A stretch of 64,000 bases of DNA from Marsupella aquatica. Its lineage: Eukaryota > Plantae > Marchantiophyta. How positions within the stretch are numbered: position 1 is the first letter of the stretch; the number at the start of each line of letters is the position of its first letter. The stretch is from the NCBI GenBank assembly GCA_973895155.1, contig OZ316893.1, positions 496,860 to 560,859 of the forward strand. Direction: 5' to 3'. Below are positions 20,401 through 51,098 of the stretch, piece by piece. A model generated the notes under the pieces. The model was not told the origin of the DNA, did not search any database, and saw only the letters and a list, made by a program, of their open reading frames with translations. Made by a program: the position numbers and the translations under genes.

Positions 20401-20584
20401 TGTTGAGTTGGGTTGGAGATATGTGTTGGGGGTGTGAGAGTTGTGGGTTTAGAGTGTCATCCCCAGTTTTCACATGTGGCATACCAGATTTTTAAGTATT
20501 GGTATGATTATTGTATATTGGGGGTGAGTTTGACCCCCAGTTTGTTGTGTGCGCATTTTGGAGGGGTTAGGGGTGGGGGTACCC

Positions 20585-21285: not shown

Positions 21286-22946
21286 TCAAAATTGGGGGTG
21301 AATCACCCCCAATTTATGCATACTAGGAGTGAGTCCACGCTCCTATATACATTTTCGTGCAGCCCAACGATCGCAATGCCCGGTCTTTGTGGTTTTTTTG
21401 TGGTCTTTTTGCCACGAGTGCCCGAAAAAGACCGTCCCGCCATGAAAATACAAAGGAACCAACATTACAAAACAAGTCGATCCCCGCGCCATTCTTCAAA
21501 CGTCACTGCTTCGAGAGCCCGGATAGCACTGCGGCCTTCTTCCCATACTCCCCTTGCATCAACTCTGGCCACCCTCCCTCCCCGTCATTTAGGGTTTATT
21601 TTAGGGTTCCCTTACCCTTGCGTTGTTCCTCGTGGCTCCCTCCCACGGCCCCCAATACACCAAGGGATCAACTACAATCCTGTCATCCTCCAAATGCCAA
21701 CTCACGTTTACGGTTTGGGATTTACCGTTTCCGGTTCAGGGTTTACCGTTTAGGGTTTAGGGTTTACCCTAGTTTCGTGTTCTTCTTGCCCCGAACGCCC
21801 GAAAAAGACAGTTGTGCCATGAAAATACAAAGTAAATCAATCCCCGCACCATTTTTCAAACGTCATTGCTTCGGGAGCCCGAATAGCACTGCGGCCTTCT
21901 TCCCATACTCCCCTCGAATCAACTCTGTCCACCCTCCCTCCCGTCATATAGGGTTTATTATAGGGTTCCCTTACCCTTGCGTTGTTCCTCGTGGCTCCCT
22001 CCCACGGCCCCCAATACACCAAGGGATCAACTACAATCCTGTCATCCTCCAAATGCCAACTCACGTTTACGGTTTGGGATTTACCGTTTCCGGTTCAGGG
22101 TTTACCGTTTAGGGTTTAGGGTTTACCCTAGTTTCATGTTCTTCTTGCCCCAAACGCTCGAAAAAGACAGTCGTGCCATGAAAATACAAAAGTAATCAAT
22201 CCCCGCACCATTCTTCAAACGTCACTGCTTCAGGAGCCCGGATAGCACTGCGGCCGTCTTCCCGTACTCCCCTCGCACGAACTCTGCCTACCCTGCCATC
22301 TATCGCGTAGAGCCTCTCCATACGTTGCGGCCACTGTGGACTGCCTCACCTCTGCCTCTCCTGGAACTTCACTCACGGGATTCACCTCTTTCTGGCCAAT
22401 TCCGTAACACTCAATCATTTCCCCGCCATCTAATTTTGCGACACCCGATTCCTGGCTTTACAGCAACCAGGACGCGTGACCCTAGACCCTCAACGCACGT
22501 TCACTCCATGGGCATAGCACTTGCCTTAGAGAACACGAACGCCCTCCACAAAACTATACTAGCACCACTACTATACTAGTCCCATCTTTGCCTTCTTCCA
22601 CTCCCCGCTGCACGACTATCGCGTAGAGCCTCTCCCTGTGCGGCTGGCCAGCACACACCCGCCCAAAGTTTAGGGTTTATTAGGGTTGTCCGAACTTGGA
22701 ATTACCTCAAACTCCATTTGACGTGCCGACAATGTAGTTAGATGGTTAGAAGCTAGTGTAGAGAATTTTAGAGTGTTGGGAAGTGATTTTGGCCCAGCTC
22801 GCTAGCCTTGCTGTATGTGGACCATACGGTCACCTCCCCGTGATTTCATTAATGTGTTCCAAGTTCTGTCCGTTGATAAGTACATGGCATATATATGACA
22901 ATTGAGAAAGGCGTACCAACGGTTGGGGTATTAATCGATATGGCAC

Positions 22947-25900
22947 CTCTCCTCCCGGGTTGCTCTTAGCTCCTTGTCGAGCTCCGCTACGACCTCAGAC
23001 TCCATGTTATTCATCTTGGCATAAGTCTGGTCGAGCTGGGCGTCCTTCTCCCGCAGGTCGGCCTTGAAGCTGGCCGTCAGGGACGCAAGCTCCTGCTGTA
23101 GCGCAACAATCCCTTGATAGGATTTCCCTAACTCGGCCTCCTTCTGCTCAAGGGCTCCGCGGATTTTCTCGAGCTCCCCCTTCAACGCCCATTCCTTTCT
23201 TTGGGTCTCCGCCATGGCCCGGTTGTTGGCTATTATGTGGGCCTCCTCTGTATTCCTCAGCTCTCGCTTCCACTTCTCCCTCTCTTTGATCGCGTCGGCC
23301 AATTCTCCCTCGGTCTGAGTCAGTTTATCCTTGATAATCTGATTATCAGCCTGCGTGGTGTCCAACTGCCCCTGCATGATGTTCAGCTCATGCCGCTTAA
23401 TCCGCAGTTCATCTTGGGCTTTCTTGGCCGCCCTTAGATCTTCAATCTCGGCTTCCATCCTCCTAAGCCACCGGATGACCTCGTCCTTCTTGCTTCTCTC
23501 TAAAGCCACCGCTTCTTCTAATTGGTGCTTCTCCAACTGCTCCCTATGGAAAAAGGGTCCTACCTCCAACTCCTCCCCAAAGATGCCGAGCGCAAGTTCC
23601 CCACATATCTCACCATACTCCATGGCTCTATTCTTAGCGTAGGTGGAGTAAGTAGAAGTGATCGGCATCGCCCATCGCGGCCTCTGCTCCCAAGCCGTCT
23701 TGCGGATCTCTTCAATCGTGGCTAGAGGTTTGCTTCCTTTTTCGGCTAGCCGCCTGATGTCCTCCGGCCAATCTCCTCCTGGAAAATCCTTTTCCCTAGC
23801 CAGGGCTGCCTTTTCTGCTTCCCTAAGTCACTCCTGAAATTCCTGTGCCGTTTGCTTTATGTCGTCAAAGCTCGGGGGAGCGACATCAGGTGGGGGAGAC
23901 TCGGGGCTGCTCTGCTGGCTTGGGTCTCCTCGAACTACTCTTGGGAGCATGGGGATGAACCGGCCACAAGTCCTTACTCCTGGAACATGATGATCCGACC
24001 CGTAGCCGGAGTCATCATTGCTGTAGTCCTCTACCGCCTCCTCCTCGGCTTGGACTACCGGCTTCTCCCGTTGTTCTCCTGGTTCTGTTGATAACACGGC
24101 TTCACCTCTCACCGGTCTTGGTTCCTCCTTCGGCTTCCGTGTTGATCTCTTGTTCTCCTTGTCGTGGCCGGGAGCTACGGCCTGCTTCTCCTCGGCTTCG
24201 GGACTTAAGGCTCCGACATTCATGCGGACTCCCGGCTCGTGTTCCGGCCTCCTTCTCTCCTTGACCCCAGTAAAAGGGTTTCCCCTTGTAAGCCGGCTTA
24301 GGCCCACCTCTGGAGCAGTGTCCTGCATTGGTGTCGTTGCCGTTGTCGTTGCCGTTGCCGTTCTCTTTTCCTTCTCCAATAATTTCAGCAGATTTTGCAT
24401 GCCTGGTTGCTGCATCGGCAAGTCCTCCGTCCTTGGTCTAAACACCTGCTCGATTGTAGGACTGTCGGGCGGGTTGGGTTTCTCCGTTGCCGGCGTCTGC
24501 TCTGGGTCCTCCTCCGATGCTCTTGCCGATAGGGGAAGTACTGGGGCAAAGATTTGACTTCTGGCATACCGGCACAACAGCGGCATGTGATAGCCAAGCC
24601 GGGACACGCTTCCCACACCGATCACCTGCTGTTCCTCCTTCAAGATCTTCTTCAGTTGGTTGAGGAGGTACCCGTTGTAATCCGGGCTTGGGTCTGGCCT
24701 TTCTGCCAGGTAGACCTGAGCCTTGCCGATCTCTGCCCTCGGCAAGTTACAATGCATGGTCACCCGCAAGAAGTCGATAATCTCTCCTATGTGCGGGTTG
24801 GTGCAAGTGTTCCAGAAGAAGCCATTCTTCGTTGATGGCCCGGGGAACGACCGGAACTCCTTGTCAGGCAAGGTCTTCCTAGTATCAACTTTGGTCTTAT
24901 TGCCTATTGGCAAGCCAAACACTTCGGCAATCACCTTGGGAGTAAGATAGAAATCCTTCCCATATATCCTCGTGGAATTGGTCTCGGGTTCCCATGACCC
25001 TACGAATTCTAATAGGTCTGAATCCGGCACCTCCGGCTTCAGCCATGGTAATCTTACAAAGGCCTCTAAGCCGGATCCGGCCATGAAGCCTTGGTACTTC
25101 TTGGTCTGCATGGCCGTAAAGCATGCATCCTCCTCCCGGGCAAAATGTAGTTGCACCTCCACTGGTAGGGTTGCCGCCCAGCCTTTCTAGGTGTCATCCC
25201 TGGTTGGAATGGCATTGATGGGATCGACCTCCTCCTCTTCGGCTTCTCCCTGCCTCCTGCTCTGCTGCTCGGCTGGCTTCTTTGGTGCCGCCGACCTCGT
25301 TCTTTTTGCCGGGGTGGCTTCATCGTTGACGGCTCCCTTCCTCTTCATCTCTGCTGCCGTGGAGGTTTCTCCTAGCACGGTTGCCTTTGTCCACCCCTCC
25401 GTGCTACCCTTCAACTCCCAGTGTATGTTGTTGCAGCGTTTGATGGCTTCTCGGATGCCGACGACTCTATCTTCGCAAAACAGAAGATCATCGAGCTGAT
25501 TGGAAGTAGGAGTCCACAAGAACTCGGCCTTGATGAGTTCGCCTCCTAAGAAAGCCGTCTTCTGCAGCTCCCACAATCGAGCGAGCTCTTGCCGTTCTTG
25601 AGCTGCCCTTTCTGATTCTTCGTCCTCGTAAGTCTTGATGTACTCAGTTGCCCGTTCGAACAGGCATCCCCAGAAATGTGCCGCTTGATTGACGTTGCTC
25701 ATACCCTCCTTGAGTCGATCGTTGGTATCTGTTCCCACCCCGAGTGCTTGTCTAAGCAGCTGACAGCATTTGGCCTCCCGTAGTCGTCTGCCCAGTTCGT
25801 TCTTGCAAATGAGCCACTATTCCTCGCGAGCGGTCCTTCCCCTCTCCTCTTCCGGTCCTTCCTTCCGTTGATCCTTCCTAGCCGCCAACGCTTAGCGCGC

Positions 25901-26077
25901 CCTAACCCTAATCTTGTTTTCACCCCCAGCGTCCTTACCTCCGGCCTCGGCCCGGGTTCCATAGTCGCCCCTAATTGTTTATATTTTCCTTGTTTTGTCC
26001 CTATACTAAGGTGTTTCTAGGGTGCATTCCTGCTTTACCCACTTAACTGGCCGAGTGATTCCTGGCTAGGCATCACA
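22947..26077 (-). mobile_element. Family-3 Gypsy LTR, copy C, 3'-truncated, carrying a disrupted LTR ORF
   Basis: Starts on the minus strand with TGTGATGCCTAGCCAGGAATCAC at 26077. ORFs 25187-25738, 23828-25162 and 22931-23668 closely match the proteins at 46750-50117 and 58490-61899. Internal stops at 25187 and 23828. Confidence 0.9.
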
Positions 26078-28058: not shown

Positions 28059-29237
28059 TCATTGGGATGTTAGTTTCTGTACCCTACCCCTAAGTAGCCT
28101 ACGTTGCTCTGCCTCCACCATAGTCCTAGCCAAGGAAAGCCGCCCAATCTTACGGCCAGAGCAAGATGAAGCAGCCACAGCCGACAGGTGATCAATAGTC
28201 TCCGTGCAGATATTAATCTGATCAAAAACGCGGTGTCTGGTCCGATCAAACGTCTGGCCATTCCTGGCAAGCCACAGGGACCACAAAGTTTGGTACATCA
28301 AGAAAACCTGTAACGTATGCAAAGGGGTCTTCCCCTGCATCGACAACAGGAGATGCACCAACCCAAGGGCCCGGTTAAATAATCTCCCATTCAGCCAGCC
28401 CTGCATTACCAGCCAGCAAGCCCCAGCATGGCGGCAGTCAAAGAAAATGTGCGGGATAGTCTCCACCACACCGGAGCAGAGTGTACATACCCCATCAGAC
28501 TTCCCAATCCTCAGAGCTTTGGAGCCAAAAAATAAACCCAGGGCAAGGATGCGCCATAAGAAGGTTCGGGCACGAGTGGATAGATCTGCAGTCCATATAA
28601 CCTGCCAGACCTTACACCATTCAATCTCAAGCAAGTTCACATTCCAGATCCTGTTAAGCCTGCAGAAATCAGATCCCTTGGGTCTTAGCAACTCAAACAC
28701 CCTGAGATTGGGAAGCCCAAATTTAGTCAGGGGCACACTGTCCTTATCGATCCATCTCCATAGTCTTGCTCCTGAGTCCCCAGTTGTTTCTCTGCAGATA
28801 GATCTGTGAAGAGTGGCAATAAAGGATAGACAAAATCTCCTATCGTCTTCCGGTAGACCCCTCAGTCTGAGCATGTTCTCATTCATATCCATCCACTGAT
28901 TATTCAGAGCAGACCGCAAATCGTTGACTTTCTTGACACCCAGCCTTCCACAGATCTTAACTACACCCAAAATGTTGGCCTCAGGGAGAGTGTAAAAATC
29001 CAATAGACAGCGCAAAACATCTTCAATCCCCCAGTGTCCAGGGATGGCCGCAGTGCCAGGACAAAGGACCAGGTTCTCCCAAACCAAGGTCCAAGCACAC
29101 CAAAGCTGGCTAGTATAACAGAGCTTCCCAAATGAGCGAGGAGTACTGAGCAGGACCTTATCCTTCATCGAGTAGTTGTTCCTACGTACCGTCTTATAGT
29201 TGCGCCACTTAGTTAGCTTTAGATTCTCCGCATACAT
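28059..29237 (-). pseudogene. LINE ORF2 C-terminal remnant (zf-RVT region)
   Basis: W..IW......RARTFLWR...CTLC....ETIPHIFFDC...CW and LWSLWLARN, typical of plant L1 ORF2 C-termini. The RT core is missing. Confidence 0.85.
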
Positions 29238-31597
29238 CCTGGCCCATTCCGATTCCGGTCTATCAAGCGCCCCAGTAAACCATTTACTTAGTAGATGCCA
29301 GCACTTTATATGCAGGATTCAGAAGAATAGCCGTTCCGCCTCTACCATCGTCAGGAGCAGAGTAAAAGTGTTGATAGTTGGGCAAGATCGTGCGTAGGGC
29401 CAGATCCAACCAAAAGCTATCCGCCTTTACTTCCTGTAGAGCGAGAGCATCTAGGGGCAATTTTCAGAGAGGATGTCCATTTCATTACAACATTTTTCCG
29501 GTCAGGGTCACACAGACCGCAGACGTTCCAAGACGCAAAATTAAAGGGCGCCATCCATATATATGACACCACAAAAGGTATACCACCCACGGCTTAGCCT
29601 CTCATCCCAAGCTGAGCAGCACAATTTAAGCAGAGGGGATAGAACCAGCGGGAATTCCCGTTAAAATATCAGAAGAACCGGGTACCATGCCAGGGGAGGT
29701 GCTGCGAGATATAGCCACTGTCGTATCTACCTCCAGGGAAGAGCCCTCAGATTGCTTCTTGTGATCACGTTGCAGCTTACATCCAGGTGTCACCCATCCT
29801 CCCGCGTCCTGCAAGGTAGAATCAGGGATGAATTGTAAGGATTTCTGATTTTTTGCTTTCTTCTTTTCCTTCTCTTTTTTCTTATCTTCAGGCGGTGATC
29901 TTCTTGCCAGCTTTCGGGCTCTCTCCTTTTTTTGGGCGGTGCGGGAGATAAATCCCTCGTACTCAGAAACCTCCATGTCAAATGGAATCTCAGGGGTAGA
30001 ATGCTCATCCTCGGCCTCTACCATTTTGTTAGAAACACCAGCGTTTAAAAGCAAAGGCACTACTGGTTCAGCTTCTGGGGCACTAGGACTAGTTCCAGAA
30101 TGCAAGAAAGAAAGCTCAAGAGTAGCGACAGTGTTCAAAATAGGCTCGTCCCTGTTCATAGCTTGCAAGTCATGCAGCACTCCCGGGCCGGGATGGCATT
30201 CATGTCAGAAAAAAGATGAGCAGACGTTACTTGCAAATTCAATCCGTCAGTAGATTCGTCAATTTCCCTATCAATAGCAACTGCACGAGAATCCCCCTCA
30301 AGATCTTGAGAACTCCCAAAAAGCGCAAATTCTCCTTCCGCATTCATAGGTAGTCTTTGAGCCAATGGAGTGATACTCCTCCCCGTTGATAGGGGCAAGG
30401 TAGCAACGGTCGCAGGATGGCTTGGCTGATCTGAATTAAGGGCATCAGCCTCCAATGCAACAACAACCAATGGCTCAGTAGTCGCAGGCACCAGGGGAGT
30501 TGGCAGCTCCTCAGCAAGTTGAGTGGCTGCAGGCGCAGGCACCTCATTTACTCGACAGTCCCGGGCTAAATGGCCCTTCTTATTGCAGCTAAAGCAATGA
30601 AATGGAATATTCTTGAATATTACTGGTTGCCATATAGAAAGATCAGCCTTGATCTGAACCTCCACACTCAATGGCACCTCCCGCTTGGTATCCCAAATGT
30701 CACGTCGTAGGCTTCGGCCTTAACTCAGACTTGAGCTTAGACGGGCACATCCCTCGTAAATCTGAGGGTTCGGGCAGGAAGGGAAGCACGGAATGCACCT
30801 TATTATCGTAAACTAGCGCTAAGTGCGCATACTGCTAAATACGGACACCTCCTAGGTATGGTTTGTGTTCCGCCGCCGGAACGTACCTTAGTCGATAGCA
30901 GGATCGACCCCGGCTTAAGGGCTTCTAAGCCTTCGTGCTGTCCGCCTTCGATCCGGATTCGATGATACAGGTCCTCAACCCGTGCTCGCAACCACTTACC
31001 CGCAGGCTGCACCCTGTGCACGTCTCGGGTAGTGCGTTCGGCCCGGCGCTGCCACCCATATACGAGAAACCCACACACATATGCGCACACATGCATACAA
31101 TCTCGATTTACACGAAGGAAAAATGATGGGAAAGGATTTTACTACAAAGGGAACATATGCGTACACTTAGTTGACACGACAGCCCTGGAATGCACAGGTT
31201 CAAGGCCAAGGGTGCACACTACAACGGAGCCCGGCTCCGCACTCACCCGACGAGCTTAGTCCTACCCCCTCCCCTTGGTACTCTGTCATTCCCAGAGGTC
31301 GGGACTCCCCGCATATCCCGCGGATGTCCGACTCTGAAACTAAAAACCCCCCCCTTGCCTCTACCGAGGGGTGCACTAAATACTAAGAGCCGAGGAACGG
31401 GGTGTCCTCCCGCCGAAGATTCGCTGACCAAGGTCCTAACTAAGCTGACAGTCAGGCCGGAAAACGGCTATGTCTTATTAGAAGATCCTAATCTACGCAG
31501 GCTGGACAGCAAGGCAGCGCTGCTGTACCTAAGGTAGGTGCCTGTCCCAAGAGCCTGACTAAGCCAATCCTAATCCTAATCTATTCCTACTCCACCG

Positions 31598-34228
31598 CTA
31601 ATGCCTGGCACGCTTGCCAGAGCCGCCCGAATGGGAACGGCCATCCCGCTGCCTTCGAAGCCTGTCATTGTCCGCTTTGAGGAGCTGGACCTGGTCCAGC
31701 AGAGATTCGTTCTCTCGCCTCGCCGCGTCCGTCTCCTCTGCTGCCTCCTGACATGCCTCCTCCAGCTGCTGGGCGTCGCTCGTCAGTTTACTCGCCAGCT
31801 GGTCCTGCTTCTCAGCCTCGGTTTGGAGCCGCGCCATCTCGGCCTGCAGCGTGGCTATCTCCGTCGCGTCCCGCTGGGCTCGCTCCTCGGCCTCCTCCAA
31901 GTCTTTCTGCCAGGTGACAGCTTGTTTCTTCAAACTGTCAATCTGGTTCCGGAGTCGTGTAATCTCGGCCTCGTTCCCAGCTTTGGCCTGTTCGGCTAGG
32001 GCGGTAAGAGCGTACGCCTTTGCTAACAACTCATCGGCGGCTGCAACCTTGGGTCGTAGTTGCAGAAGCTCAGCCTCTTGAGCCGCCACTTCGTTCTTTA
32101 GGTACACGGACTCCACCCGGTACCGCTCTATCCTCTGAAGGGCCTCCGACTGGGCCCGCCCTGCCTTTACGGCGGCAACCAACTCCTGATTGAAGAAACA
32201 GGCTACCTTCCGGGCCATGAACTCCCCGGTATCCCGGGCAATTTGATGAGAGAAATCTCCCAGAAGCCCGTTCAGAAACGTACCCTGTACGAAGAGTTCC
32301 GGGTGGTCCAAGTTGTGCCTGTCCGGATTTGGGCACGGGCAGACATCAACACGCGCAGGGGCCGGGGCAGTGACGTCCAGCCCTGGGGACATAACGTTGG
32401 AAGGGGCTGGAGTGTCCTCCTGTAGCAATGTCCGGTTCTCCGGAATTGCCACTGGCGGGTCCTTGGGAGACCCGGGTTCGGGTAAGACCTCTGCCGTACC
32501 AACTTCTGTACTTAGCCCGGCTAGTTGGGTCGCATCAACGGTTGCGACGACCGACCCCTCCGGCGCCTCCTCGGTTACGATTACAGCTATTTGTGGAGGT
32601 GGGGTGGGTGAAGCTGGCGTGTCCACTGGACTTCGGGCCTCGGGTTGGGGCCGTCTCTCCAATGCCGGAAAAACCCACCTAGCTGGGACCAGCTTTGTAA
32701 CGTTGATGCGGGGAAGGGTTCGTCGATCAAACCGGGCGTACCACTCAAGAATGATTTCGATGTGGCTAGCGAAATACGCCTTCCCGCCAATGTACAGCGT
32801 CTTCCTTCGCCGCTCCATCTCTTCATGGAATTTCTTAGCGAAGTACGACGCCCATTTCCTAGGTCGATAGTTCTCGACCTGGATGACCTGGGCGGCGGAG
32901 ATCTCCCCCCGGGGTTCCATCATGTGGAGAGCGTACCTCTGGAACTCCAGCCGCTCAGCTATCTCGGGCATGAGGCAGGTCCTCATCACGAACCCGTTGT
33001 CTACTGATCCCTCTGAGGGAAAACTTGAAGATTGGTACTTGGCCCCCTTGCCACCGGGAGCCCGTGATTCGACTCGATGGTCACCTTCGGGTAACCCGAA
33101 GATCATCTTGAGCCGTTCTTCTGTGAGGGACATATTCCTTCCCCGCAGCCGAGTCTGTTGACGTACGTCGTCATAATTCTTGACGAATTCTGTCATGTCC
33201 TCCCCGTAGTACCTGCAAGTGTTCCAGGGGAGAGAGGCGAGGTGCTCAAATCCCTGAGTCTTCAGGTACACCGCATGCTTGGGATGGAGGATGTTGCTGT
33301 GAACGTTTTCCCCCATGCGATGCATCGTTACCTTGGCTACAGCTACCGTGGCCAACGGTAACCCGGATGCACTGGCGGATTCCTTCCTCTTCTTTCCCCG
33401 TGACTGACTCGGGGAAGGTGATACTTCCCCATCCTCCCGATCGGGCCTGGGGAGTGCCACTGCGGTTGGTAACGGGCTCGGGGCGGCCACGGTCACCATG
33501 TTGTCTGCTGGGGCCGCTTCTGGGGTCAGAGCAGGGGGTGGGGACGATATAGTGTCGGCCCCCCGAGCGCTTGTTCCTCTGGGCCGCCTGGTCAAGGGTG
33601 GGGGAGCCTCGTCGTCATCGCTAAGATCCACAGCGTTGATGACGGAGCGTACCTGTGCTGGCTGGGTGATAGGTGGTGGGGTTTGGCTAGGCTGCGGCTG
33701 AGGCTGAAGCTGAGGTTGCATGGGCACGGGTACGGGTACGGGCCCGGCTGAGTTGGTCATGTTGGTTGATGGCCGAGTTCCCATGAAGCTCTGTAGGTGC
33801 TGGTAGAAGTTCTCCGAAGCGAGTGCAGACGCCCTTGTCGAATGGTTGGTACTGGACTCGCCGTTAATGACAGCCCGAACCTGGGCAGGGATGTGGTCAA
33901 AGTGATGTCGCTGCAGGTCGATTGTACCCGGGATATTGAAGACCTCGTCCGGAAGCCGAAGCAATGCTTCCCAAAACCCGATATATTTGTCTCCGTTGAA
34001 GAAGTACCCAGATACCTCAGCTGGTCGGTAAAGCTCGCTCTGAGACGGGTAGTCAAAGTTAAGGACGTAGTGGTGTCGTCCTGCTAGGCGGATGGCTCTC
34101 TCGTATTCGCGTTCGATCTCGTATCGGCGCGGGTTGGCGTGTTTCAATGAATCGGCCAAGTGCCTTCCGGTAGATAGGAACTACGTCCAGAATCGAATGG
34201 CCGAGCTAGAGAGGATCGTGTGCGACAT
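31598..34228 (-). CDS. LTR-encoded protein, family 1 (~876 codons from ATG 34228; one TAG at 34181-34183, then 853 aa open): PMD-like core plus coiled coil
   Basis: The in-frame ATG gives MSHTILSSSAIRFWT*FLSTGRHLADS. Core GFEHLASLPW...EFVKNYD...TRLRGRNMSLTEERLKMIFGLPEG, Pro-rich linkers, a C-terminal heptad-rich region and a basic tail. Confidence 0.75.
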
Positions 34229-34329
34229 TCAGAGGAGATAGTAGTGGCGACCTAGAGAGAACGAGAGAGCTGGGGTCAAAGCTGGCGCGCGGACTGATGG
34301 ACTGGTGCACTACAAAGGGTTGGCTCCCC

Positions 34330-34336
34330 TTTTATA
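34330..34336 (-). promoter_or_regulatory. Candidate LTR TATA box, family 1
   Basis: TATAAAAGGGG on the minus strand, ~360 bp inside the LTR start and ~100 bp upstream of ATG 34228. Confidence 0.55.
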
Positions 34337-35124
34337 CTTTGAGGGCTTGTCGATCCCTGACGTCTCCTCGACGCCCATAGGTTGAACCGCTCACGCTTGT
34401 GGTGTACCGGCCACTCCGCCGGTCTGAGTCAGCGTGCGTCAGTGGCCGCTTCCTTAAGTTCGTTATACGGACCCGAGGGAGGGGCCCCTCCACGCTCGTA
34501 ACCCGGGTGTGCGAATAGCGACCCGCCGCCAGCCCGAACCTGAAGTCCCCCTTATTGCCTAATGATGTCCTACCCCTAATGATTACCTAAATACTGTCGT
34601 TATGCTAATAATAGCGGCCTAAGACCCACCTAACGCGCGTGCCGAGCGCAGTTAGACTGAATCACTCATTAACCGCCGTACCGGCGGCGTCACACCAAAG
34701 TACACAGGCCCTGTCGTGTGGATAAGTGCTCAGGTCGTCACCCTGAATATAGTGAAGAATGTCGCCCAAGGACGCAGCAAGCTTCCGACGACAAGGTTCA
34801 AGTAGCAATGCACCGAATGGAATCTCAATCCACACAGGCAATAAGGTATAAGATTCACTTCTGATGTCAAAGGAAGGATCCCAAGGGAAAGTGAATACAA
34901 ATTTTTGCTCCAAGAACCAGGGGGCACAAGCCAGTGCAAAATCTCGATGTTTGGGATTCCTGAATGCTACCATATAGAAGTTTTTCCCAATGAATTTGAC
35001 TTGCGAAACAGGCCAATTCATCTCAGAAACGAAGGTCTTCTCCACCCAGAACTTAAATGTGGACAGCATCGGTGCGCGATTAGTAAAATAACACATCATG
35101 GAGCAGTTATACAGTTTGGTCACC

Positions 35125-38100
35125 TGTCACTTGCCTATCCAACGATTAATGCGTGCCAACCGTACTTTTCCTTGCTTAAACCGTTGGTATCGTATTACGG
35201 GGTCGTGGAGGGACGCTATTTGGAGGATTTTCACACCTAAGGATGAGTATGTTTGATTCCGCTCCCGGAAGTGTACTTTTTGATCAAGTCTACCGACTGG
35301 TCTCTCCGTTTTTGATCAAGTCCAAGGGACTGGTCCTACCATCTACAACTCATGCCCACCGGGTGAGTGCTGTCACCACCCCCCTCCTCTTTTGGGCAAG
35401 CATACCAACATTTACAATAAGATTTGAACACTAGTGACAAGAGCAAATGTTTCCACAAGGACACCGACCACACACACTAGGGGAGGAAAACAAACAACAC
35501 AAGCAACAACAAGTGACACACGAAATATTGGAACCTCAAGCCAAATCCATATCTCTTGGTGTTTCCCGTAACACATGCAAGGACAACCCGGCCTCCTGCC
35601 GTCTGCCCAACTCCTGCCTCCCGGGACAAGTGCTACGTTCTCCACCTCACTACTCTGGCTTGAACTTCTCCTAATCGGTGCGCTACTCACAAAAGCTACT
35701 CCAAAGCCAAGTACTACGCTGAGTTCCCCCCCTCACTACTCTGGGGCTCTCCCCCTAAATACCAAAAAACACACCAAAGCACCCCTCACGGGGCCACAAC
35801 GAAGGCGGCTTACCCTAGCGGCGCCGCTAAACCCTTCACTAAGAAACCCCTAAACTAAAACCATGCGGCACACACATGCGTCTAAAAACCCTAAACCCTA
35901 AACTAACAATGGGGCCGACGGTGCCTTCGACGGTGCCCCAACGTTATTCCGTGAACCGTGAAATTGCAAGGAACCCCACAATGGCCGAAACTAGGCGCCC
36001 CTCCACTTGCACTTCTGAGTTCACCCCTGGATAGCTCTCCTCCTCCTGATCACGGATCACTTCAACCGCTCTCTAAACGGACATTGGACGACCAAGTTAT
36101 GACCGTTTCCGTATCCCGTAAACACAACTTCGCCGGGCCATAACCTGCTCATCCTGGCTCCGTTTGAGGAGCGCCGCCTCTTGTTGGAATCAGCTCCGTG
36201 AGCTCTTTCCAACAAGCCCGTGAGTGACCCCTCACAAAAAGTTGGAAAGTCCAGGGGCCGTACAACCACGTCCGTACGACCACTCTAATCCTCCTCCTCT
36301 TCACTCACGGTGCCCTGGCTTGAGCCCCGTGAGTGGGCCTCCTCATCACTCTCCACTGGAGTGAGTGCCACTTCACTTCTCTTCTTCTTTACCGGGGTAC
36401 TCCTTGTGCTAGTGCTCCCCTGCTTTCTCAAATTGGCCAAGGCCTGCCACGCTTTAATGTACCCCTCACCAATGGTGTCCTTCCATAGGGTAGCCTCTTC
36501 TCCGGACCGCAACTCCAACGGTAGAACTTGCCCTGTGGCCATGGGAGTCCCGGGGGTGACAGACCTGGGTGGCATCCCTGTACTGACCTGAGCCTCCCGT
36601 AAGGATTTCCGTACCTCCCGGAGCTTCTTCTCCAAGCCCTTGCTCTTCTCCTGACTCTTCTTGGCTCCATCCAACAAGGGCCCATACTTCTCACTAACCT
36701 CCTTCACCACCATCTCAATAGCCTGGGAGATCAAATCCGGAGAAAGTGTGGAGCTAGGAGTGCCGGGGCTCTTCCGTTTCCCCAGACTCAAGGCCTCACT
36801 CCTCTTTGCTCGTGTCTCAAAGGCGGCCACCTGACTCCGTAGTGCTCCCACCTGGTTTCTCCACTCCACCACTTCTCCAGAATTCTGCTTCTCTTTGGCC
36901 AATGCTTGTCTCAATGCTCCCACCTCTTCTGCTTCCTTGGCCTTGGTGGACAAGGCTCCCTTCAAGTTGGAGATCTCTACGTGAGCTTCTTGGAGAAGCT
37001 TAACCTTCTCATGAATGGTCCCCTCCTTGGCCTTGATCACCTCCTTCAGAGACAGGGTACTCTGCTCTAACGTCTCTACTCTGGCTGTGGTGTGCTTGAG
37101 AGAATCTCTCAATGCGTGGACTAGCTTGAGTCCCTCATGGACTCCCTCTCTGAAATCCCGTAGCTCTGCCAGGTAAACATCCGGAATGTTGTAGGCCAGG
37201 GGCTCTTTCGGATCTCCCACGAGTGATTCAAGCCACTCCAATGTGTAGTCCTCATCTTGGTTTTCTTCTCCTCTATCTTCATCCCCACCAGCCGACGATG
37301 ATTCCTCCGTGAGCTTCCCTATAACGGTAGTGGCAATACTCCGGATCTCCATGGTGAGAGATGATTCTGTGTCTTCCTGTCCTGGGGAACCAATCAACCC
37401 TTCTGCCCTGGCCAATACAAATGACCCCATCAAATGTACAGCCCCACCTGGTTTCACACTCCCGAGGTCAGCGGCCAACAGCTTCTTCAACCCGTAGTAC
37501 CACCATCCGTACACATGGGCTGGGTGGTTCTTGATGTCCATAGCTACCACGAAATGCTCTTCATTCACCACCCCTGATTGCACGTTGCCAAGGACCCGTT
37601 GATGAACCTTGGCCAGGAATCCCTTATACTCAACATCCTTGACAGCGGAAAGAGAGATGGCAGTGGTGGAGGTGGGATTAATCACCCAAGTGGCCACCAT
37701 CTTCAACGTGAGTTCTCCCCTGATGTGCCGAGGTGTGAATGAGAATTTCTGATTCTCCAGAAACAGCAGCCTAGCCAACTCTACATGGGGCACTACACGT
37801 TTGAGACATTCAAAGTAGATTCCCTCCGTTCGTAACTCCATCCCGGCCTCAATGTCCCAGCTCTTCCCCGGGGGGATGGTAATCTCCACCTTCATGAATT
37901 CTGTAACCCCGGTGGCTTGGAAAATATTCCGACAATCCTCCATCACCTTGGCGGAGGTCTTGGGATAAATTCGACGAAAAATCCTCCTACCCACCGGTGT
38001 GGAACCTGCTGCCAATCCCGTGCTCATCGTAGCTTCTCTCTCTTCTCTCTCCCTTGCAATCAAAGTCTCCACATAGTCACGGTAAGCAGCCTTGTATCTC

Positions 38101-45889: not shown

Positions 45890-46105
45890 CCCATTGAGAC
45901 CTGCATTCCAAACTCACACCATTGTCTTAGAAAGCAATCTTTGTGAATATCAACCGTCGCACGATGCGTTGTGGTTGACGTACAATAACAAAGTAACCAA
46001 CAAACTTCTCACGTATCAACCGTCACAAGTTGCATTGTGGTTGATAGGCTTGAATTCCAAATAGACGTAGCTCTACCTCTTCGTGTAGTCAAACAAGAAG
46101 AAGGG

Positions 46106-46123
46106 TCCCCGGCAGCGGCGCCA
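46106..46123 (-). other. Primer-binding site, Athila-type (tRNA-Asp-like)
   Basis: TGGCGCCGCTGCCGGGGA on the minus strand, nearly identical to the Athila PBS TGGCGCCGTTGCCGGGGA. Confidence 0.8.
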
Positions 46124-46373: not shown

Positions 46374-46467
46374 TGTGATGCCTAGACAGGAATCACTCGG
46401 CCAGTTAATTGGGTAAAGCAGGAAGGCACCCTAGGAACACCTTAGTATAGGGACAAAACAAGGAAAA

Positions 46468-46473
46468 TATAAA
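46468..46473 (+). promoter_or_regulatory. Candidate LTR TATA box, family 3
   Basis: AAAATATAAAC is conserved in copies A, B and C, ~95 bp inside the LTR start and ~280 bp upstream of the ORF ATG. Confidence 0.45.
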
Positions 46474-46749
46474 CCATTAGGGGCAACCATGGAACCCGGG
46501 CCAAGGCCGGAGGTAAGGACGCTGAGGGTGAAAACTTGATTAGGGTTAGGGCACGTTAAGCATCGGCGGCTAGGAAGGATCAACGGGAAGAAGGACCGGC
46601 AGAGGAGAGGGGTAAGGAGCGCTTGCAGGAGATGGTGGCTCATTTGCAAGCACGAACTAGGCAGACGACTACGGAAGGCCAACTACTGTCAGCTGCTTAG
46701 GCAAGCACTCGGGGAGAGAGTAGATACCGACGATCGACCTAAGGAGGGT

Positions 46750-49700
46750 ATGAGCAACGTCAATCAAGCGGCACATTTCTGGGGATGCCTGTTCAAACGG
46801 GCAACTGAGTACATCAAGACTTACGAGGACGAGGAATCAGAAAGGGCAGCTCGAGAACGGCAGGAGCTCGCTTGATTGTGGGAGCTGCAGAAGACGGCTT
46901 TCTTAGGAGGCGAACTCATCAAGGACGAGTTCCTGTGGACGCCTACTTCCAATCAACTCGACGATCTTCTGTTTTGCAAAGACAGCGTCGTCGGCATCCG
47001 AGAGGCCATCAAGAACTGCAACGACATACACTGGGAATTAAAGGGTAGCACGGAAAGGTGGACCCAGGCAACGGTGCTAGGAGAAACCTCCACGGCAGCA
47101 GAGATGAAGAGGAAGGGAGCCGTCAACGATGAAGCCACCCCGGCAAAAAGAACGAGGTCGGCGGCACCAAAGAAGCCAGCCGAGCAGAAGAGCAGGAGGC
47201 AGGGAGAAGCCGAAGAGGAGGAGGTCGATCCCATCAAGGCCATTCCAACCAGGGATGACACCTGGAAGGGCTGGGCGGCAACCCTACCGGTGGAGGTGCA
47301 ACTACATTTTGCACGGGAGGAGGATGCATGGTTCACGGCCATGCAGACCAAGAAGTACCAAGGCTTCATGGCCGGATCCGGCTTAGAGGCCTTTGTAAGA
47401 TTACCATGGCTGAAGCCGGAGGTACCGGAGTCAGACCTATTAGAATTCGTGGGGTCATGGGAACCCGAGACCAATTGCACGAGGATATATGGGAAGGATT
47501 TCTATCTTACTCCCAAGGTAATTGCCGAAGTGTTTGGTTTGCCGATAGGCAATAAGACCAAAGTTGATACCAGGAAGACCTTGCCTGACAAGGAGTTCCG
47601 GTCGTTCCCTGGGCCATCAACGAAGAATGGCTTCTTCCGGAACACCTGCACCAACCCGCACATAGGAGAGATGATCGACTTCTTGCGGGTGACCATGCAT
47701 TGTAACTTGCCGAGGGCAGAGATCGGCAAGGCACAGGTCTATCTGGCAGAAAGGCCAGACCCAAGCCGGGACTACAACGGGTACCTCCTCAACCAATTGA
47801 AGAAGATCTTAAAGGAGGAGCAACAGGTAATCGGCATGGGGAGCGTGTCACGGCTTGGCTATCACATGCCGCTATTGTGCCGGTATGCCAGAGGTCAGAC
47901 TTTTGCCCCAGTACTTCCCCTGCAGGTAAGGGCACCCGAGGAAGCTCCAACGCCGAGGCCGTTGGCTGAGAAGCCTCAACCACCTGTTAGCCCTACGATC
48001 GAGCAGGTGTTTAGGCCCAGGAAGGAGGACTTGCCGATGCAGCAACCAGGCATGCAGAGTCTGCTGAAACTACTGGAGAAAGAAAAGAAATCGGCATCGG
48101 CAACGGCAACGGCAACAATGCAGGACACTACTACAGAGGTAGGCCTACACCGGCTCACAAGAGAAAACCCCTTTGCTGGAGACAAGGAGAGAATCAGGCC
48201 GGAATCCAAGCCAGGTGTTCGAATGTACGTGGGAATCTCAAGCTCCGAATCTGAGGCAGATTGCCCGAAGCTCCTACCGACGAAGAGGAGAGGGAGAAGC
48301 CGGACGTCCAAGAAGTAGAGGAGGCAGTGGAGGACTGCAGCCATGATAATTCCGACTATGGGTCGGACCATCACGTTCCAGGAGTAAGGACCTGTGGCCG
48401 GTTTGTCCCCACACTTCCAAGGGTAGTGCGAGGGGACCCCAACCAGCAGAGTAGCCCTGAGTCTCCCCCACCAGATGTTGCTCCCCCGAGCTTCGACGGC
48501 ATAAAACAGATGGTGCAGGAATTTCAGGAGCGAATCAGGCAGGAAGAGGAGGCAGCCCTGGCTAGGGAAAAGGATTTACCAGGAGGAGATTGGCCGGAGG
48601 ACATCAGGCGGCTAGCCGAAAAAGGAAGCAAACCTCTAGCCACGATTGAAGAGATCCGCAGGACAGCTTGGGAGCAGAGGCCGCGATGGGCGATGCCGAT
48701 CACTTCTACTTACTCCACCTACGCTAAGAATAGAGCCATGGAGTATGGTGAGATGTGTGGGGAACTTGCGCTCGGCATCTTTGGAGAGGACTTGGAGGTA
48801 GGACCCTTTTTCCATAGGGAGCAGTTGGAGAAGCACCAATTAGAAGAAGCGGTGGCTTTAGAGAGAAGCAAGAAGGACGAGGTCATTCGGCGGCTTAGGA
48901 GGATGGAAGCCAAGATTGAAGATCTAAGGGCGGCCAAGAAAGCCCAAGATGAACTGCGGATTAAACGACATGAGCTGAACATCATGCAGGGGCAGTTGGA
49001 CACCGCGCAGGCTGATAATCAGAATATCAAGGATAAACTGACTCAGACGCAGGGAGAGTTGGCCGACACGATCAAAGAGAGGGAGAAGTGGAAGCAAGAG
49101 CTGAAAAATACAGAGGAGGCCCACATAACAGCCAACAGCCGGGCCATGGCGGAGACCCAAAGAAAGGAATGGGCGTTGAAGGGGGAGCTCAAGAAAATCC
49201 GCGGAGCCCTTGAGCAGAAGGAGGCCGAGTTAGGGAAATCCTATCAAGGGATTATGGCGCTGCAGCATGAGCTTGCGTCCCTGACGGCCAGCTTCAAGGC
49301 CGACCTAAGGGAGAAGGACGAGATGCTCGAATAGACTTACGCCAAGATGAACCAGATGGAGTCTGTCATCATTGCAGAGCTCGACAAGGAGCTAAGAGCA
49401 ACCCGGGAGGAGAGGACTACCTTGAAACAAGAACGGGAGGAAGCCCAGAAGGAACTAGAGGAGGCATGCAAGGACCTGGATGAGACCCAGGAGGAGTTGG
49501 AGGAAATCACGAGGAAGATGGAGAACCTCCAGCGGCGGGCCGACAACCAAACGGAGCGGCTGAAGAAACAAGCCGTAGTATTTAAGTGCTTGTCTTCATC
49601 AGGCCCAACTCCAATTGGGGCAACCAAGTTACCAGGAGTGGTACTGGCCGAAGAAAAAGCCGCGCCAACTGCACCAGTGCCGGAAGTAAGTGGGAAGGGG

Positions 49701-50117
49701 AAGGGACCAGCTGCCGAACCAGAAAAGAAGAAAAAGCGGAAACCTTCTGGGTCAAAGAGTAATCCGACTCCACAAGCCGTGGTGACCAAAGAGGTAGAAC
49801 CAGCACCATCCTCCGGCATGAATACGGCAATAGATCCCGCTATCATCACAGGTGGGGGTGGTGCGGCCCAAGCCGAACTACTCAGTAAGGAGGCCGGTAT
49901 TCCAGATCCGCCTCTTGAGCAGGCCGGGGAGACCGTAGCCGAGGCTGAGGCCATACCCGATTCCCGAGCCGATGCCGACGCCGATGGTGGACCCAGTCAG
50001 GCCGATGGAGAGTTGACTCAGTCAAGGGCAGGTAATCTGTCAGGGAATGAGCCTACGGCAGTGGCTGAGGAGGAAGCGTTGGGGGTGTCCATTAAGGATC
50101 CACCACCGGTGTCGTGA
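46750..50117 (+). pseudogene. LTR-encoded protein, family 3 copy A (~1100 aa when repaired): PMD-like core plus long coiled coil
   Basis: Starts MSNVNQAAHFWGCLF. Stops at ~46873 and ~49332 and a frame-shifting deletion near 48260 relative to copies B/C. ORF pieces 46876-48318, 48261-49334 and 49347-50117. Confidence 0.85.
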
Positions 50118-51033
50118 CGGTGCAAGGGCGCCGTTCCTTTTAGGGAGGGCGGACGTGGAGGGAGGAGGCGTGAGTGAGCAGGGCAGGCGCGGATCTCCAA
50201 GTTTAGGATTAGGATCAGGACCAGGAGCGGCCCTGACACTTAGCTTAGTGGGATTGCGGTCCCACTGGTAGGAGCAACACTTGTGCTCCTGCCTTGCTGT
50301 ACATAGGTAGATTCGGGCAAGTAGATTACTGTTAAGTAGATTAGGCTTACGATGCAAAGAATGGCGGATCCACTACCAGGATAAGTACCTGGGCAGCGGG
50401 GAGCTCAGGGCCTCTTCTTTAGCAAGTTTTTAGTTTGCACCAGCCGGGCTGGGATCAAGTAGTACGAGAAGCTCTCGGTTAGTCATACATTGACCCTTGT
50501 GTATATTCATGTTTCCTCATGCCTAAGAGCTGAATAGAGTTGGCCTCACGGCTTAGTTCGCAGAGCTTGTGTATGAGATGTACTGTTTGTATGGCAAGTG
50601 CATGGTATGACTCAGTCAGAATGAGTCATTTTGCTATTTGTGTGTCGCATTAACTTGTGTGAAGAGTGCCCACATCAACCAAAAGGAAGGAAAGTAAGCA
50701 GGGGAGTGAGAGTTGGATGTGTCCAGCTGAGAGAGGTCTTAGCGGCTTAACCAAGCCTATTGGGGATCATTCCGGCGGCGGAATCCAAACATACCTAACA
50801 AGACGGAGGGGAAGACAGGGGAAGGCCTAGATTAGGCTGGCTACGTATCTCATGACCCGATGAAGGATCTGTCCAGTATATGTGTGTAAAATGTTAATAG
50901 TAGTAGTAGAAGGTTAGCAGCGTCCCATGCCGCTAAGCCGCGGAAACGGCCTCGCCAAGCGCGAAACCTGCGGGAATCGGCTTGAGCTGGGGGGTTTCTT
51001 GGGTTTAGGGAGCCATGGGACGCACCACATTTT

Positions 51034-51050
51034 TGGCGCTAGATGGAGGG
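51034..51050 (+). other. Primer-binding site, family 3 copy A
   Basis: TGGCGCTAGATGGAGGG, 4 nt after the LTR-terminal CA; tRNA not assigned. Confidence 0.75.
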
Positions 51051-51098
51051 GGCATTTCTTAAGCCATGAGATATGAAGTTAGAACGGAAGCGTAGGTA

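Follow-up and report, generated by a model that had tools for sequence, protein, structure and literature searches.

A 3,997-bp insert that interrupts a LINE in the liverwort Marsupella aquatica is most likely a solo long terminal repeat (LTR) of a Ty3/gypsy family that itself carries an 876-codon gene, the protein of which has a predicted VANC21/plant-mobile-domain-like fold and a coiled coil; we put the probability of this reading at roughly 0.65. The window analyzed here is the whole 64,000-nucleotide stretch of contig OZ316893.1 (positions 496,860 to 560,859; GenBank assembly GCA_973895155.1), and all coordinates are positions within it (Table 1). That the insert is a solo LTR is well supported but not proven. 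If true, even leftover solo LTRs would retain a gene for a VANC-like protein. What is new relative to the Ogre-type arrangement is the place of the gene, which would lie upstream of the primer binding site and inside the LTR.

Table 1 Positions of the features discussed in the text.
Feature	Position	Strand	Details
Insert, inferred solo LTR	30698..34694	-	3,997 bp; minus (element) strand reads TGTGACGCC...CGACGTGACA
Target-site duplication, left copy	30693..30697	.	CCAAA; contig joins 30692/34695, 5 letters fit both sides
Target-site duplication, right copy	34695..34699	.	CCAAA; in-silico removal
Interrupted LINE ORF1-like frame, upstream half	34700..35126	-	DUF4283 match 34662-35126, E 1.4e-08
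Interrupted LINE ORF1-like frame, downstream half	30156..30697	-	CCHC knuckle match 30156-30719, E 7.2e-05
Short motif, TTCCGGCGGCGGAA core	30853..30883	-	Shared with family A LTR, 29 nt, 90%
LTR-borne gene	31598..34228	-	876 codons, ATG 34228 to stop 31600-31598; TAG at codon 16
Predicted promoter TATAAAA	34330..34336	-	Sole TATAAAA in insert; element position 359; 108 nt upstream of ATG
In-frame TAG, codon 16	34181..34183	-	Private to this copy; Gln in sibling copies
Conserved N-terminal region	33806..34228	-	FWxxF ... LP..I..LPG motifs; low-confidence helices in model
Central globular domain	32720..33340	-	Residues 281-487 of 860-aa frame; predicted VANC21-like fold
C-terminal long helices	31640..32299	-	Residues 628-847; predicted coiled coil
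Element A 5' LTR	46374..51029	+	4,656 bp; TGTGATGCC...GCACCACA
Element A primer binding site	51034..51051	+	18 nt, tRNA-like; 4 nt past LTR end
Element B 5' LTR	57572..62275	-	Family of A, inverted; then same primer binding site and gag 57499-55283
Copy C, truncated A-family LTR	22946..26077	-	A/B terminus, different flank

An integrase-type insertion in a LINE

The edges of the insert are exact. On the forward strand it reads TGTCACG...CGTCACA, i.e. it has TG..CA ends, and it is flanked by a perfect CCAAA/CCAAA duplication, as the sequence-only reading had described. In-silico removal of the insert together with one CCAAA restores, again as proposed, a single LINE-ORF1 frame with DUF4283 and CCHC matches that is open across the junction; a zf-RVT domain lies downstream at 28059-29318. 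In public contigs (three from run X1 and two from run X2), position 30692 is joined directly to 34695, and LINE paralogues without the insert therefore exist. TG..CA ends with a 5-bp duplication are the pattern produced by an LTR integrase. Within the insert we found no terminal or internal direct repeats (no repeat family at its ends), no k-mers of at least 9 nt common to its first and last 400 nt, and no long transposase-type terminal inverted repeats. Pfam detected no gag, pol or other domain in it except for weak coiled-coil matches below the cut-off. The earlier statement that gag, pol and internal direct repeats are missing is thus borne out, and the insert is not a small element with short LTRs of its own. 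Together, the TG..CA ends, the 5-bp duplication, the empty site and the lack of an internal LTR pair support an insertion of the integrase type.

The insert unit is very abundant in public runs: the summed contig depth in X1, which is no copy number, was 75,380-489,077 on bins wholly inside the insert versus 506-1,114 on the LINE flanks. Past the 3' end of the insert, five short X1 contig ends agree with one another (0.88) and resemble the post-LTR region of a neighboring element, D; past its 5' end, 13 X2 contigs disagree (agreement 0.43).

A gene with a predicted VANC21-like product

The TATAAAA, the ATG and the TAG at codon 16 named by the sequence-only reading are all present on the minus strand, and the frame that stays open after the TAG (stop to stop, 34180..31598) counts 860 codons instead of the 853 given there. 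On the element strand, the gene starts 467 nt into the ~4-kb insert. An open frame of 860 codons at ~58% G+C is far beyond chance. Among 1.84e9 representatives, 41 homologues were found at E<=1e-3, which cover the N-terminal, central and C-terminal parts of the protein at 20-56% identity with conserved motifs; the named ones are all from the liverwort Calypogeia fissa. Seven of the 12 indels listed (from a total of 16) fall inside the insert, and of these seven, the five 1-nt indels are all non-coding and the two 6-nt indels are both within the ORF. A frame that arose by chance or has decayed, and that yields no protein, would fit the lack of a Pfam family, but this is already very unlikely given the number of open codons, the homologues with their conserved motifs, the confident fold model described below and the in-frame size of all ORF indels among those listed. 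The sequence comparisons support the view that the gene is real and conserved.

Sibling copies carry a sense codon in place of the TAG at codon 16, a point that the sequence-only reading had put forward as a check. In particular, position 34183 is G, not A, in 313,520 of 318,257 depth units in X1, 30,441 of 31,335 in X2, 50.8 of 50.8 in X5 and 4 of 4 in X6. In the homologues, the corresponding column, which lies inside the FWxxF motif, holds L, N, R, Q or F. Because of the TAG, this locus probably makes no full-length protein. Private changes of the C-to-T type are also present in this copy.

The central domain was modeled with a pLDDT of 86.7 and a pTM of 0.80. With this model, Foldseek returned VANC21 with its target DNA (9lnj_A; E 4.5e-03, probability 0.99) and no other match below E 1. 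Structural comparison with VANC21 gave a VIA Z of 8.5, in the middling range on the tool's own scale, with an rmsd of 4.3 over 209 aligned residues; VANC21 was the sole chain with Z of at least 2 among the 48,161 compared. DUF1985 (0.87) and PMD (0.86) are among the nearest Atlas clusters that bear a name; with values below 0.9, they serve as leads only. At the sequence level, identity to VANC21 is 8-10%, Pfam matched neither PMD (PF10536) nor DUF1985 in the ORF or in any of 32 relatives, and a PDB profile search gave coiled-coil noise only. The modeled C-terminal helices span residues 628-651, 653-731 and 737-847, and no candidate binding motif forms tandem arrays in the non-coding parts of the insert. 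We predict from these models that, in the encoded protein, a coiled coil comes after a VANC21/plant-mobile-domain-like fold. VANC itself is reported in PMC13547354 to be a structural homologue of MAIN, a plant-mobile-domain protein, with predicted coiled-coil multimerization.

It is possible, although we think it doubtful, that the insert is a solo LTR with a real gene, but that its protein serves the element in cis, in an accessory or structural role like the 5' extra ORFs of Ogre or Retrosat2, or promotes silencing like the plant-mobile-domain proteins MAIN and MAIL1. It would be translated from full-length genomic RNA only, as the first cistron, and solo LTRs would be silent relics with nothing to supply in trans. 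Extra ORFs upstream of gag to which no role is assigned are common in the superclade (PMC3485330, PMC6317226), and MAIN and MAIL1, for which this fold class is reported, contribute to silencing and do not oppose it (PMC5418596). The lack of tandem motif arrays in the LTR also favors this reading, as do the stop codon in this copy and its private C-to-T type changes, which fit a methylated, decaying copy. However, the sole matching solved structure is that of DNA-bound VANC21, and the succession of conserved domain, variable linkers and coiled coil parallels the layout reported for VANC; moreover, a solo LTR retains its TATA box and ATG like any LTR.

Related elements in the window

Residues 301-483/522 of the insert protein align with three further ORFs of the window (28% identity; tblastn E 4e-19 to 3e-18; blastp E down to 9e-21). 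In elements A and B and in the truncated copy C, the layout of the insert recurs, with a homologous ORF equally far from a terminus of the same type, and the termini themselves are alike (TGTGACGCC in the insert, TGTGATGCC in family A). In A, the homologous gene is broken into ORFs 46876-48318, 48255-49334 and 49335-50117. The short motif near the 3' end of the insert (Table 1) recurs in the family A LTR about as far from its 3' end; the motif of the insert also shows 82% complementarity, across 22 nt, to the LTR 5' terminus. A, B and C have one terminus in common (46374, 62275 and 26077, respectively) but three unrelated flanks, and this terminus is therefore an element end; no other LTR was found upstream of it in any of the three, and no pol was found beside copy C. 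At the other end of the unit, both A and B have GCACCACA (CACA), which in inverted form agrees with the start, TGTGATGC, at 7 of 8 positions and is followed by TTTT, the 18-nt tRNA-like site and gag (ATG at 51099 in A). The post-LTR stretch is identical in the two elements except that the G-run of B is one G shorter, and identity across the boundary between LTR and primer binding site is 89-92%. From plant tRNA ends, we take the 18-nt site to be tRNA-like, possibly Asn; a scan of the window with ARAGORN gave no tRNA gene for comparison.

Summed contig depth, again no copy number, steps down at this boundary. Over 46723-51041 of element A it was 488k-1,020k in X1 and 299k-598k in X2, as against 111k-270k and 74k-169k, respectively, over gag (51042-53500), i.e. 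a step of 3-4 fold at 51041/51042, with one contig departing exactly at 51029. The depth of the A-family ORF is that of the LTR and not that of gag. In element D, by contrast, the extra-ORF region showed no excess of depth over pol in X1 and an excess of only ~2-3 fold in X2. As the unit that runs from the ORF to the CA end precedes the primer binding site and gag, and the depth steps there, the gene of this family lies inside the LTR.

These observations bear on whether the insert might be not an LTR but a non-autonomous cassette that carries only a VANC-like gene, be it a DNA transposon whose terminal inverted repeats are 7 bp long and imperfect and whose target duplication is 5 bp, or another integrase-mobilized unit, with related cassettes standing before gag in A and B by chance. 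VANC is itself a DNA transposon gene, no gag-pol parent was found for the insert's family, and protein searches for fused forms gave none, which is weak evidence. We nevertheless regard such a cassette as improbable, in view of the element end that A, B and C share, the order of CA end, 4 nt, tRNA-like site and gag in A and B with its well-conserved boundary, the coincidence of the depth step with the gag-side boundary of the LTR of A, and the lack of long transposase-type terminal inverted repeats in the insert. A 5-bp duplication was moreover reported for 93.4% of 13,863 plant elements (PMC6317226). Thus, the proposal that the insert is a gene-bearing solo LTR holds as regards the integrase hallmarks and a related family with the gene inside its LTR; related A/B units adjoin both a primer binding site and gag, but the insert's own parent was not found next to gag-pol, and the window contains no element with two gene-bearing LTRs or with a 3' LTR adjoining pol.

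Proposed history and known systems

According to the solo-LTR reading, a full element would have entered the LINE by integration; its two LTRs would then have recombined, leaving a single LTR with the target-site duplication intact. Since the gene precedes the primer binding site, it would pass into both LTRs during reverse transcription, and each LTR, including a solo LTR, would hold the promoter and the gene. Should the sole TATA box be the promoter of the LTR, the genomic RNA would have this gene as its first cistron, and an LTR alone could also yield the gene product. The protein would oligomerize via its coiled coil, bind the DNA of its own family via the VANC-like domain and thereby have a trans effect on silencing similar to that of VANC on VANDAL transposons. 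A silencing-related function, which we only infer, is the weakest step of this proposal.

In a literature phrase search, genes inside an LTR were returned in retrovirus papers only. MMTV sag lies in U3 and HIV nef overlaps U3. Like the gene described here, these are protein genes within LTR sequence and hence occur twice in a provirus; unlike it, they are U3 genes of animal retroviruses with unrelated proteins and upstream promoters, so the likeness is one of analogy only. The rice elements Retrosat2, RIRE3 and RIRE8 resemble the insert in their long LTRs (over 3.2 kb) and in a fast-evolving extra ORF (ORF0) ahead of gag-pol, and the LTR ends of Retrosat2 and RIRE8 (TGTCAC...GTGACA; PMC3485330) are similar to those of the insert (...CGTGACA). 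ORF0, compared by description only, differs in that it is placed upstream of ORF1 with the LTR treated separately, whereas the ORF of the insert starts within the inserted unit. VANC21, the anti-silencing factor of the Mutator-like Arabidopsis transposon VANDAL21, is the only structural match, and it too is transposon-encoded and combines a conserved domain with variable regions and a coiled coil. In contrast to VANC21, the protein of the insert has no DUF1985 match and comes from an LTR retrotransposon instead of a DNA transposon; its LTR lacks tandem target-motif arrays, and its DNA binding and anti-silencing activity are predictions.

Among known arrangements, the extra ORF of Ogre elements, with its plant mobile domain, comes closest. 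In Ogre, ORF1 is located between the LTR/primer binding site and gag. Ogre/Tat elements share with the insert the Ty3/gypsy context, the 5-bp duplication, LTRs 4-5 kb long, a large ORF that precedes gag in sense orientation and, by way of VANC and MAIN, a fold class tied to the plant mobile domain; according to PMC6317226, 57% of Ogre elements have this domain in their extra ORFs. Unlike them, the insert has no PF10536 sequence match and resides in a liverwort, whereas Gypsy-encoded plant mobile domains have been described in angiosperms (PMC5418596). Above all, the ORF described here precedes the primer binding site and forms part of the LTR, such that both LTRs and any solo LTR would carry it.

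The insert and its target site

Plant transposons are nested throughout the window, namely a CACTA transposase, a LINE and two gypsy families (Table). The insert splits a frame resembling ORF1 of the LINE, and the sequence-only reading had described it as a unit lying between perfect CCAAA repeats whose removal restores that frame. The position of the insert and its perfect duplication proved exact, and a scripted deletion of the insert together with one CCAAA left a frame that runs through the junction without a stop. As it stands, the frame carries DUF4283 in its upstream half (34662-35126) and a CCHC knuckle in its downstream half (30156-30719), and a zf-RVT ORF comes next (28059-29318); we take this combination to be the make-up of plant LINE ORF1, for which 'LINE ORF1' is a fair label. 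The empty site was also found in contigs of public sequencing runs (here X1 and X2). In particular, three X1 contigs and two X2 contigs join 30692 straight to 34695, with five letters fitting either side, and one more contig joins 30697 to 34706. The contigs joining 30692 to 34695 show that paralogous copies of the LINE exist without the insert, and the join falls at the duplication. The LINE itself seems to be internally shortened; its zf-RVT ORF lies only ~840 bp from the ORF1-like frame (28059-30204), and no RVT_1 domain turned up in the ORFs tested.

Features of the window and regions of the protein encoded by the insert (window positions, or residues of the full-length model)
Feature	Position	Strand	Description
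CACTA-type transposase	811-4566		broken into three frames; Transposase_21 (E 2e-70), DUF4218, DUF4216
Copy C	26077 to 22946		truncated; self-comparison
Homologous ORF, copy C	25186-23828	-	
Left target-site duplication	30693-30697		CCAAA
Insert	30698-34694		TGTCACG...CGTCACA, 3,997 bp
Right target-site duplication	34695-34699		CCAAA
Element D pol	44152-39500	-	1,550 aa
Element D gag	45368-44094	-	intact
Copy A	from 46374		self-comparison
Homologous ORF, copy A	46876-48318	+	
Copy B	from 62275		inverted; self-comparison
Homologous ORF, copy B	62013-59593	-	
Protein, N-terminal region			helical, weakly predicted
Protein, disordered linker	residues ~130-280		
Protein, globular domain	residues 281-487		confident
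Protein, second disordered linker	after the globular domain		
Protein, long helices	residues 628-847		about 220 residues

The TG...CA termini of the insert form a short inverted repeat (6/7 positions). We found no direct repeat between its ends, no internal LTR pair and no polypurine tract within it and, as in the sequence-only reading, no gag, pol or primer binding site; short internal LTRs at both ends, which would be at odds with a solo LTR, were searched for in the insert and none was found. Comparison of the insert with the window by blastn returned only the self-match. Past the 3' end of the insert, five X1 contigs share one sequence (agreement 0.88), which resembles the stretch between the LTR end and the primer binding site of element D, a neighbouring gypsy element on the minus strand (35125-46373); ahead of the 5' end, 13 X2 contigs disagree (agreement 0.43). 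Differing 5' neighbours and a recurrent 3' neighbour are what would be expected from many insertion sites together with one recurrent internal neighbour. Taken with this behaviour of the ends, the TG...CA termini, the perfect 5-bp duplication and the lack of internal repeats leave a solo LTR as the only conventional reading of the insert. The structural part of the claim is well supported by the integrase-type ends, the duplication, the empty site and the lack of internal repeats, and a solo LTR is the probable reading; no parent was found, and the window held no element with two gene-bearing LTRs and no 3' LTR following a pol and polypurine tract.

A conserved gene within the insert

The minus strand of the insert carries a frame that is open from stop to stop over 34180-31598 (860 aa); counted from an ATG at 34228 there are 876 codons in total, codon 16 being TAG. 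The ATG, the TAG and a TATAAAA inside the insert, all of which had been called from the sequence, were confirmed, the last as a single occurrence 108 nt upstream of the ATG, and the 853 open codons counted past the TAG have to be corrected to 860. (Note that a second 860-aa ORF, at 51096-53678, was set aside as an unrelated gag, its same length being a coincidence.) Position 34183 is A in the insert copy and G in its siblings, as judged from 313,520 of 318,257 depth units in X1 (47 contigs), 30,441 of 31,335 in X2, 50.8 of 50.8 in X5 and 4 of 4 in X6, the last two being further public runs. Codon 16, whose state in sibling copies had been singled out for checking, thus encodes an amino acid (Gln) in the family. 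When the homologues were aligned with the stop written as X, this codon fell within a conserved FWxxF motif, at a position that is L, N, R, Q or F in the homologues, whose start codons lie similarly far upstream. The siblings differ from the insert copy by indels, at least 16 in all; seven of the 12 listed lie inside the insert, and among these the five 1-nt indels are all non-coding and the two 6-nt indels are in the ORF.

Among 1.84e9 representatives, an exhaustive HMMER search recovered 41 matches at E<=1e-3, 17 of them at <=1e-10, which cover the protein from its N-terminal region through the central domain to its C-terminus; the best match is 33% identical. A cluster mate of 906 aa has the same full-length plan, and the sole matches with an organism name come from a leafy liverwort, Calypogeia fissa, as unnamed proteins, which makes a liverwort or another bryophyte the probable source of the window. 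Contigs carrying the known relatives are 1-3 kb long, and a search for homologous proteins of near or greater length found none, which is weak evidence and silent on fused forms. The gene is real. The copy of it in the insert, which has the codon-16 stop and differs from its siblings by many private transitions, is probably inert.

Homologous genes beside gag, and element D

When the 860-aa frame was used as a tblastn query, three more ORFs were detected in the window, with 28% identity over residues 301-483/522 and E values of 4e-19 to 3e-18; blastp matched the same three ORFs. Self-comparison of the window assigned them to three copies (A, B and C) of one gypsy family. All three copies share the start TGTGATGCC and have three mutually unrelated flanks, so that this terminus is a true element end; on its coding strand, the insert starts TGTGACGCC. 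In A and B the gene, which stops and frameshifts disrupt, begins some hundreds of nt in from the terminus. Some 900 nt of non-coding sequence come next (912 nt from the ORF end to the CA end in A), and the unit ends ...GCACCACA (51029 in A), an inverted match to the start at 7/8 positions. The insert, with its terminus, 466 nt, the ORF, 900 nt and ...GTGACA within 3,997 bp, follows the same plan.

Immediately after the end of the A and B unit (CACA) come TTTT, an 18-nt stretch (51034-51051 in A) and the ATG of gag (51099 in A), and all of this is the same in A and B save for one G fewer in B. The 18-nt stretch is shaped like what we take to be the complement of a tRNA 3' end, and hence a putative primer binding site; ARAGORN found no tRNA gene within the window. 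Depth, given here as summed contig depth, was 488k-1,020k in X1 and 299k-598k in X2 across the seven bins of A from 46723 to 51041, and 111k-270k and 74k-169k, respectively, across the four gag bins from 51042. The ratio of mean depth between LTR and gag is thus ~3.7 in X1 and ~3.3 in X2, depth being a proxy and not a copy number, and the 90% identity filter applied to contigs would, if anything, favour the coding gag. The step at 51041/51042 indicates that the ORF of the A family has the abundance of the LTR and not that of gag. Moreover, one X1 contig departs exactly at 51029, which argues that the A unit also ends there outside the context of the primer binding site. If depth is equated with copy number, there would be ~1.3-1.7 solo or truncated LTRs per full A-family element, a figure that is only indicative. 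With 12,475 X1 contigs aligned to the sequence (contigs of the public runs are ~150-300 nt long), the depth in bins wholly inside the insert was 75k-489k versus 0.5k-1.1k on the LINE flanks; by depth, the insert family is as abundant as the A-family LTR.

A is cut in RT at ~55366 and B in gag, and no pol adjoins C. A (LTR, gag and RT) and B (inverted, LTR and gag) stand tail to tail over 46374-62275, both cut at the same place, and because the flanks of the A-B block carry no target-site duplication, we attribute the block to rearrangement and not to simple insertion. The insert LTR and the A-family LTR are otherwise unalignable and have in common a 29-nt stretch with a TTCCGGCGGCGGAA core (30853-30883 and 50770-50797; 90%), located 160-260 nt ahead of the LTR 3' end. 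In the insert this stretch is complementary to the 5' terminus of its own LTR over 22 nt (82%), and it may be a cis element. Tandem and dispersed repeats form a large block (16045-22718; 75-98% identity by self-comparison) that adjoins the truncated end of C and contains ORFs of no known family at 21333-22112.

Element D has two stretches that are 99% identical, one comprising its last 231 bp ahead of the LINE (35125-35355) and one at 46143-46373, ~20 nt before a tRNA-like site that is possibly of Asp type. The 5' copy breaks off exactly at the terminus of A, which means that the LTR of D is longer than 231 bp; no similarity to the remainder of this LTR was found beyond 62275. Between pol and the LTR end, D carries a 617-aa ORF (38138-36285) with a C-terminal coiled coil, which had no BLASTP match to the insert gene and no match with a profile of the insert-gene homologues. 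No clear polypurine tract with a TG start was found after the pol of D, and depth over the extra-ORF region exceeded that over pol by only ~2-3 fold in X2 and not at all in X1. Judged by its position, the 617-aa ORF may be another LTR-borne gene. Upstream of it, the minus strand at 38450-39150 is G+C-rich and holds loosely repeated 'GGGGGATTAAATCCCCC...CCGCGAG'-like units, beside which lies a long pyrimidine tract (38420-38470); the lowest contig depth in D (2.2k, X1) falls over the GGGGGATTAAATCCCCC region, marking it as the most variable part. AAACCCT, a plant telomere-type unit, occurs 2.6 times at 35886-35903 in the LTR-side region, and one X1 contig carries the letters ...CCCTAAACCCTA at a nearby joint, 35620 to 36264.

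Predicted fold, proposed function and known systems

The full-length model of the protein has a mean pLDDT of 61, as expected from its long disordered linkers. Modelled alone (32 sequences), the central domain reached a pLDDT of 86.7 and a pTM of 0.80. The sole Foldseek match in the PDB below E 1 was VANC21 with its target DNA (9lnj_A; E 4.5e-03, probability 0.99, 240 columns, 8% identity), and among 48,161 representative chains compared by VIA-align the sole chain with Z>=2 was again VANC21 (9lnk_A; Z 8.5, rmsd 4.3, 209 residues aligned, model residues 1-231 on chain residues 295-585). A Z near 8 is middling on the VIA-align scale, and a lone match to VANC21 over the whole domain is worth more than that label implies. 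In an Atlas feature search, DUF1985 (0.87) and the plant mobile domain (0.86) were among the nearest named clusters, all of which scored <0.9 and serve as leads only. Pfam returned only weak coiled-coil matches for the ORF, all below cut-off; the plant mobile domain (PF10536) and DUF1985 (PF09331, which we take to be the VANC domain) were not listed for the ORF at E<=1 or for 32 relatives at E<=0.1, and a PDB sequence-profile search gave coiled-coil noise only. The models suggest a fold shared with VANC21, and the link to the plant mobile domain would run through the published homology of VANC and MAIN. In particular, PMC13547354 describes VANC as structurally homologous to the plant-mobile-domain protein MAIN and predicts coiled-coil multimerisation.

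We propose that an element of the insert family integrated into the LINE and that LTR-LTR recombination then left one LTR. If the gene lies ahead of the primer binding site, it would belong to the RNA segment that is reverse-transcribed first and then transferred, and both LTRs of every new copy would therefore carry it. Should the lone TATA box be the LTR promoter, the gene would lie in R/U5 as the first cistron of the genomic RNA, and an LTR on its own could give a monocistronic message, provided that transcripts end within the LTR. The protein is predicted to oligomerise through its coiled coil, to bind DNA through the VANC-like domain and to modulate the silencing of its own family. VANC proteins, according to PMC5735166, bind short, often tandem motifs in the non-coding parts of their own VANDAL transposons and bring about a loss of DNA methylation at these sites. 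Scanning the LTRs for tandem repeats revealed nothing substantial in the insert and no tandem motif arrays; this, together with the very low identity to VANC21 and the action of the related MAIN and MAIL1 in silencing, speaks against the silencing-modulator step, and anti-silencing or modulation of silencing is a prediction. The full reading is tentative: in this plant lineage, a regulator with the VANC/plant-mobile-domain fold would have moved into the LTR of gypsy elements, making each of a very large number of LTRs, solo copies among them, a promoter-plus-gene unit whose sequence-specific product acts in trans across the family. LTR-LTR recombination, by which the host mainly deletes retroelements, would then strip out gag-pol and leave a distributed, multi-copy pool of anti-silencing or silencing-modulating genes, which would also be a source of domesticated plant-mobile-domain genes. 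We give it a probability of about 0.2.

The extra genes of plant LTR retrotransposons are described as belonging to the internal region, which LTR-LTR recombination removes. A gene before the primer binding site changes this, as it would be copied into both LTRs in each round and would survive, with a promoter, in each solo LTR. Should the protein act as VANC21 does, it would be the first retrotransposon counterpart of a transposon anti-silencing system, in a bryophyte. It would also extend the transposon-linked history of the plant-mobile-domain/VANC fold back to long before the angiosperms, a point relevant to the origin of MAIN-type host genes. The system is directly testable, as it needs a single protein, a single abundant LTR family and a binding assay.

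Genes inside LTRs are familiar from retroviruses, as in sag of MMTV and nef of HIV, and a limited search of the literature on ORFs inside LTRs found, among the matches listed, only retroviral cases and none for a plant retrotransposon LTR. Likewise, a limited search on extra ORFs and liverwort LTR elements did not find a gene inside a plant LTR described; LTR-borne ORFs may be hidden in published tables. The nearest known arrangement is that of Ogre/Tat elements, which have very long LTRs and a plant-mobile-domain ORF ahead of gag. In angiosperms, clades A1 and A2 of the plant mobile domain are reported to be encoded by Gypsy elements (PMC5418596), and 57% of Ogre elements have the domain in extra ORFs (PMC6317226). 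A further near arrangement is that of rice Retrosat2, RIRE3 and RIRE8, with LTRs >3.2 kb and an ORF0 ahead of gag-pol (PMC3485330). Copies A and B resemble the Ogre type in carrying a sense ORF of >=250 codons upstream of gag. However, the Ogre-type ORF sits in the internal region, past the 5' LTR and the primer binding site (a review places extra ORFs 'in the internal region'; PMC7264820), whereas the ORF described here comes before the putative primer binding site in A and B and, in the insert, lies within a duplication-bounded unit. The arrangement differs from known systems in having no sequence-level family, in its probable bryophyte host and in that the gene would lie within the LTR itself, ahead of the putative primer binding site.
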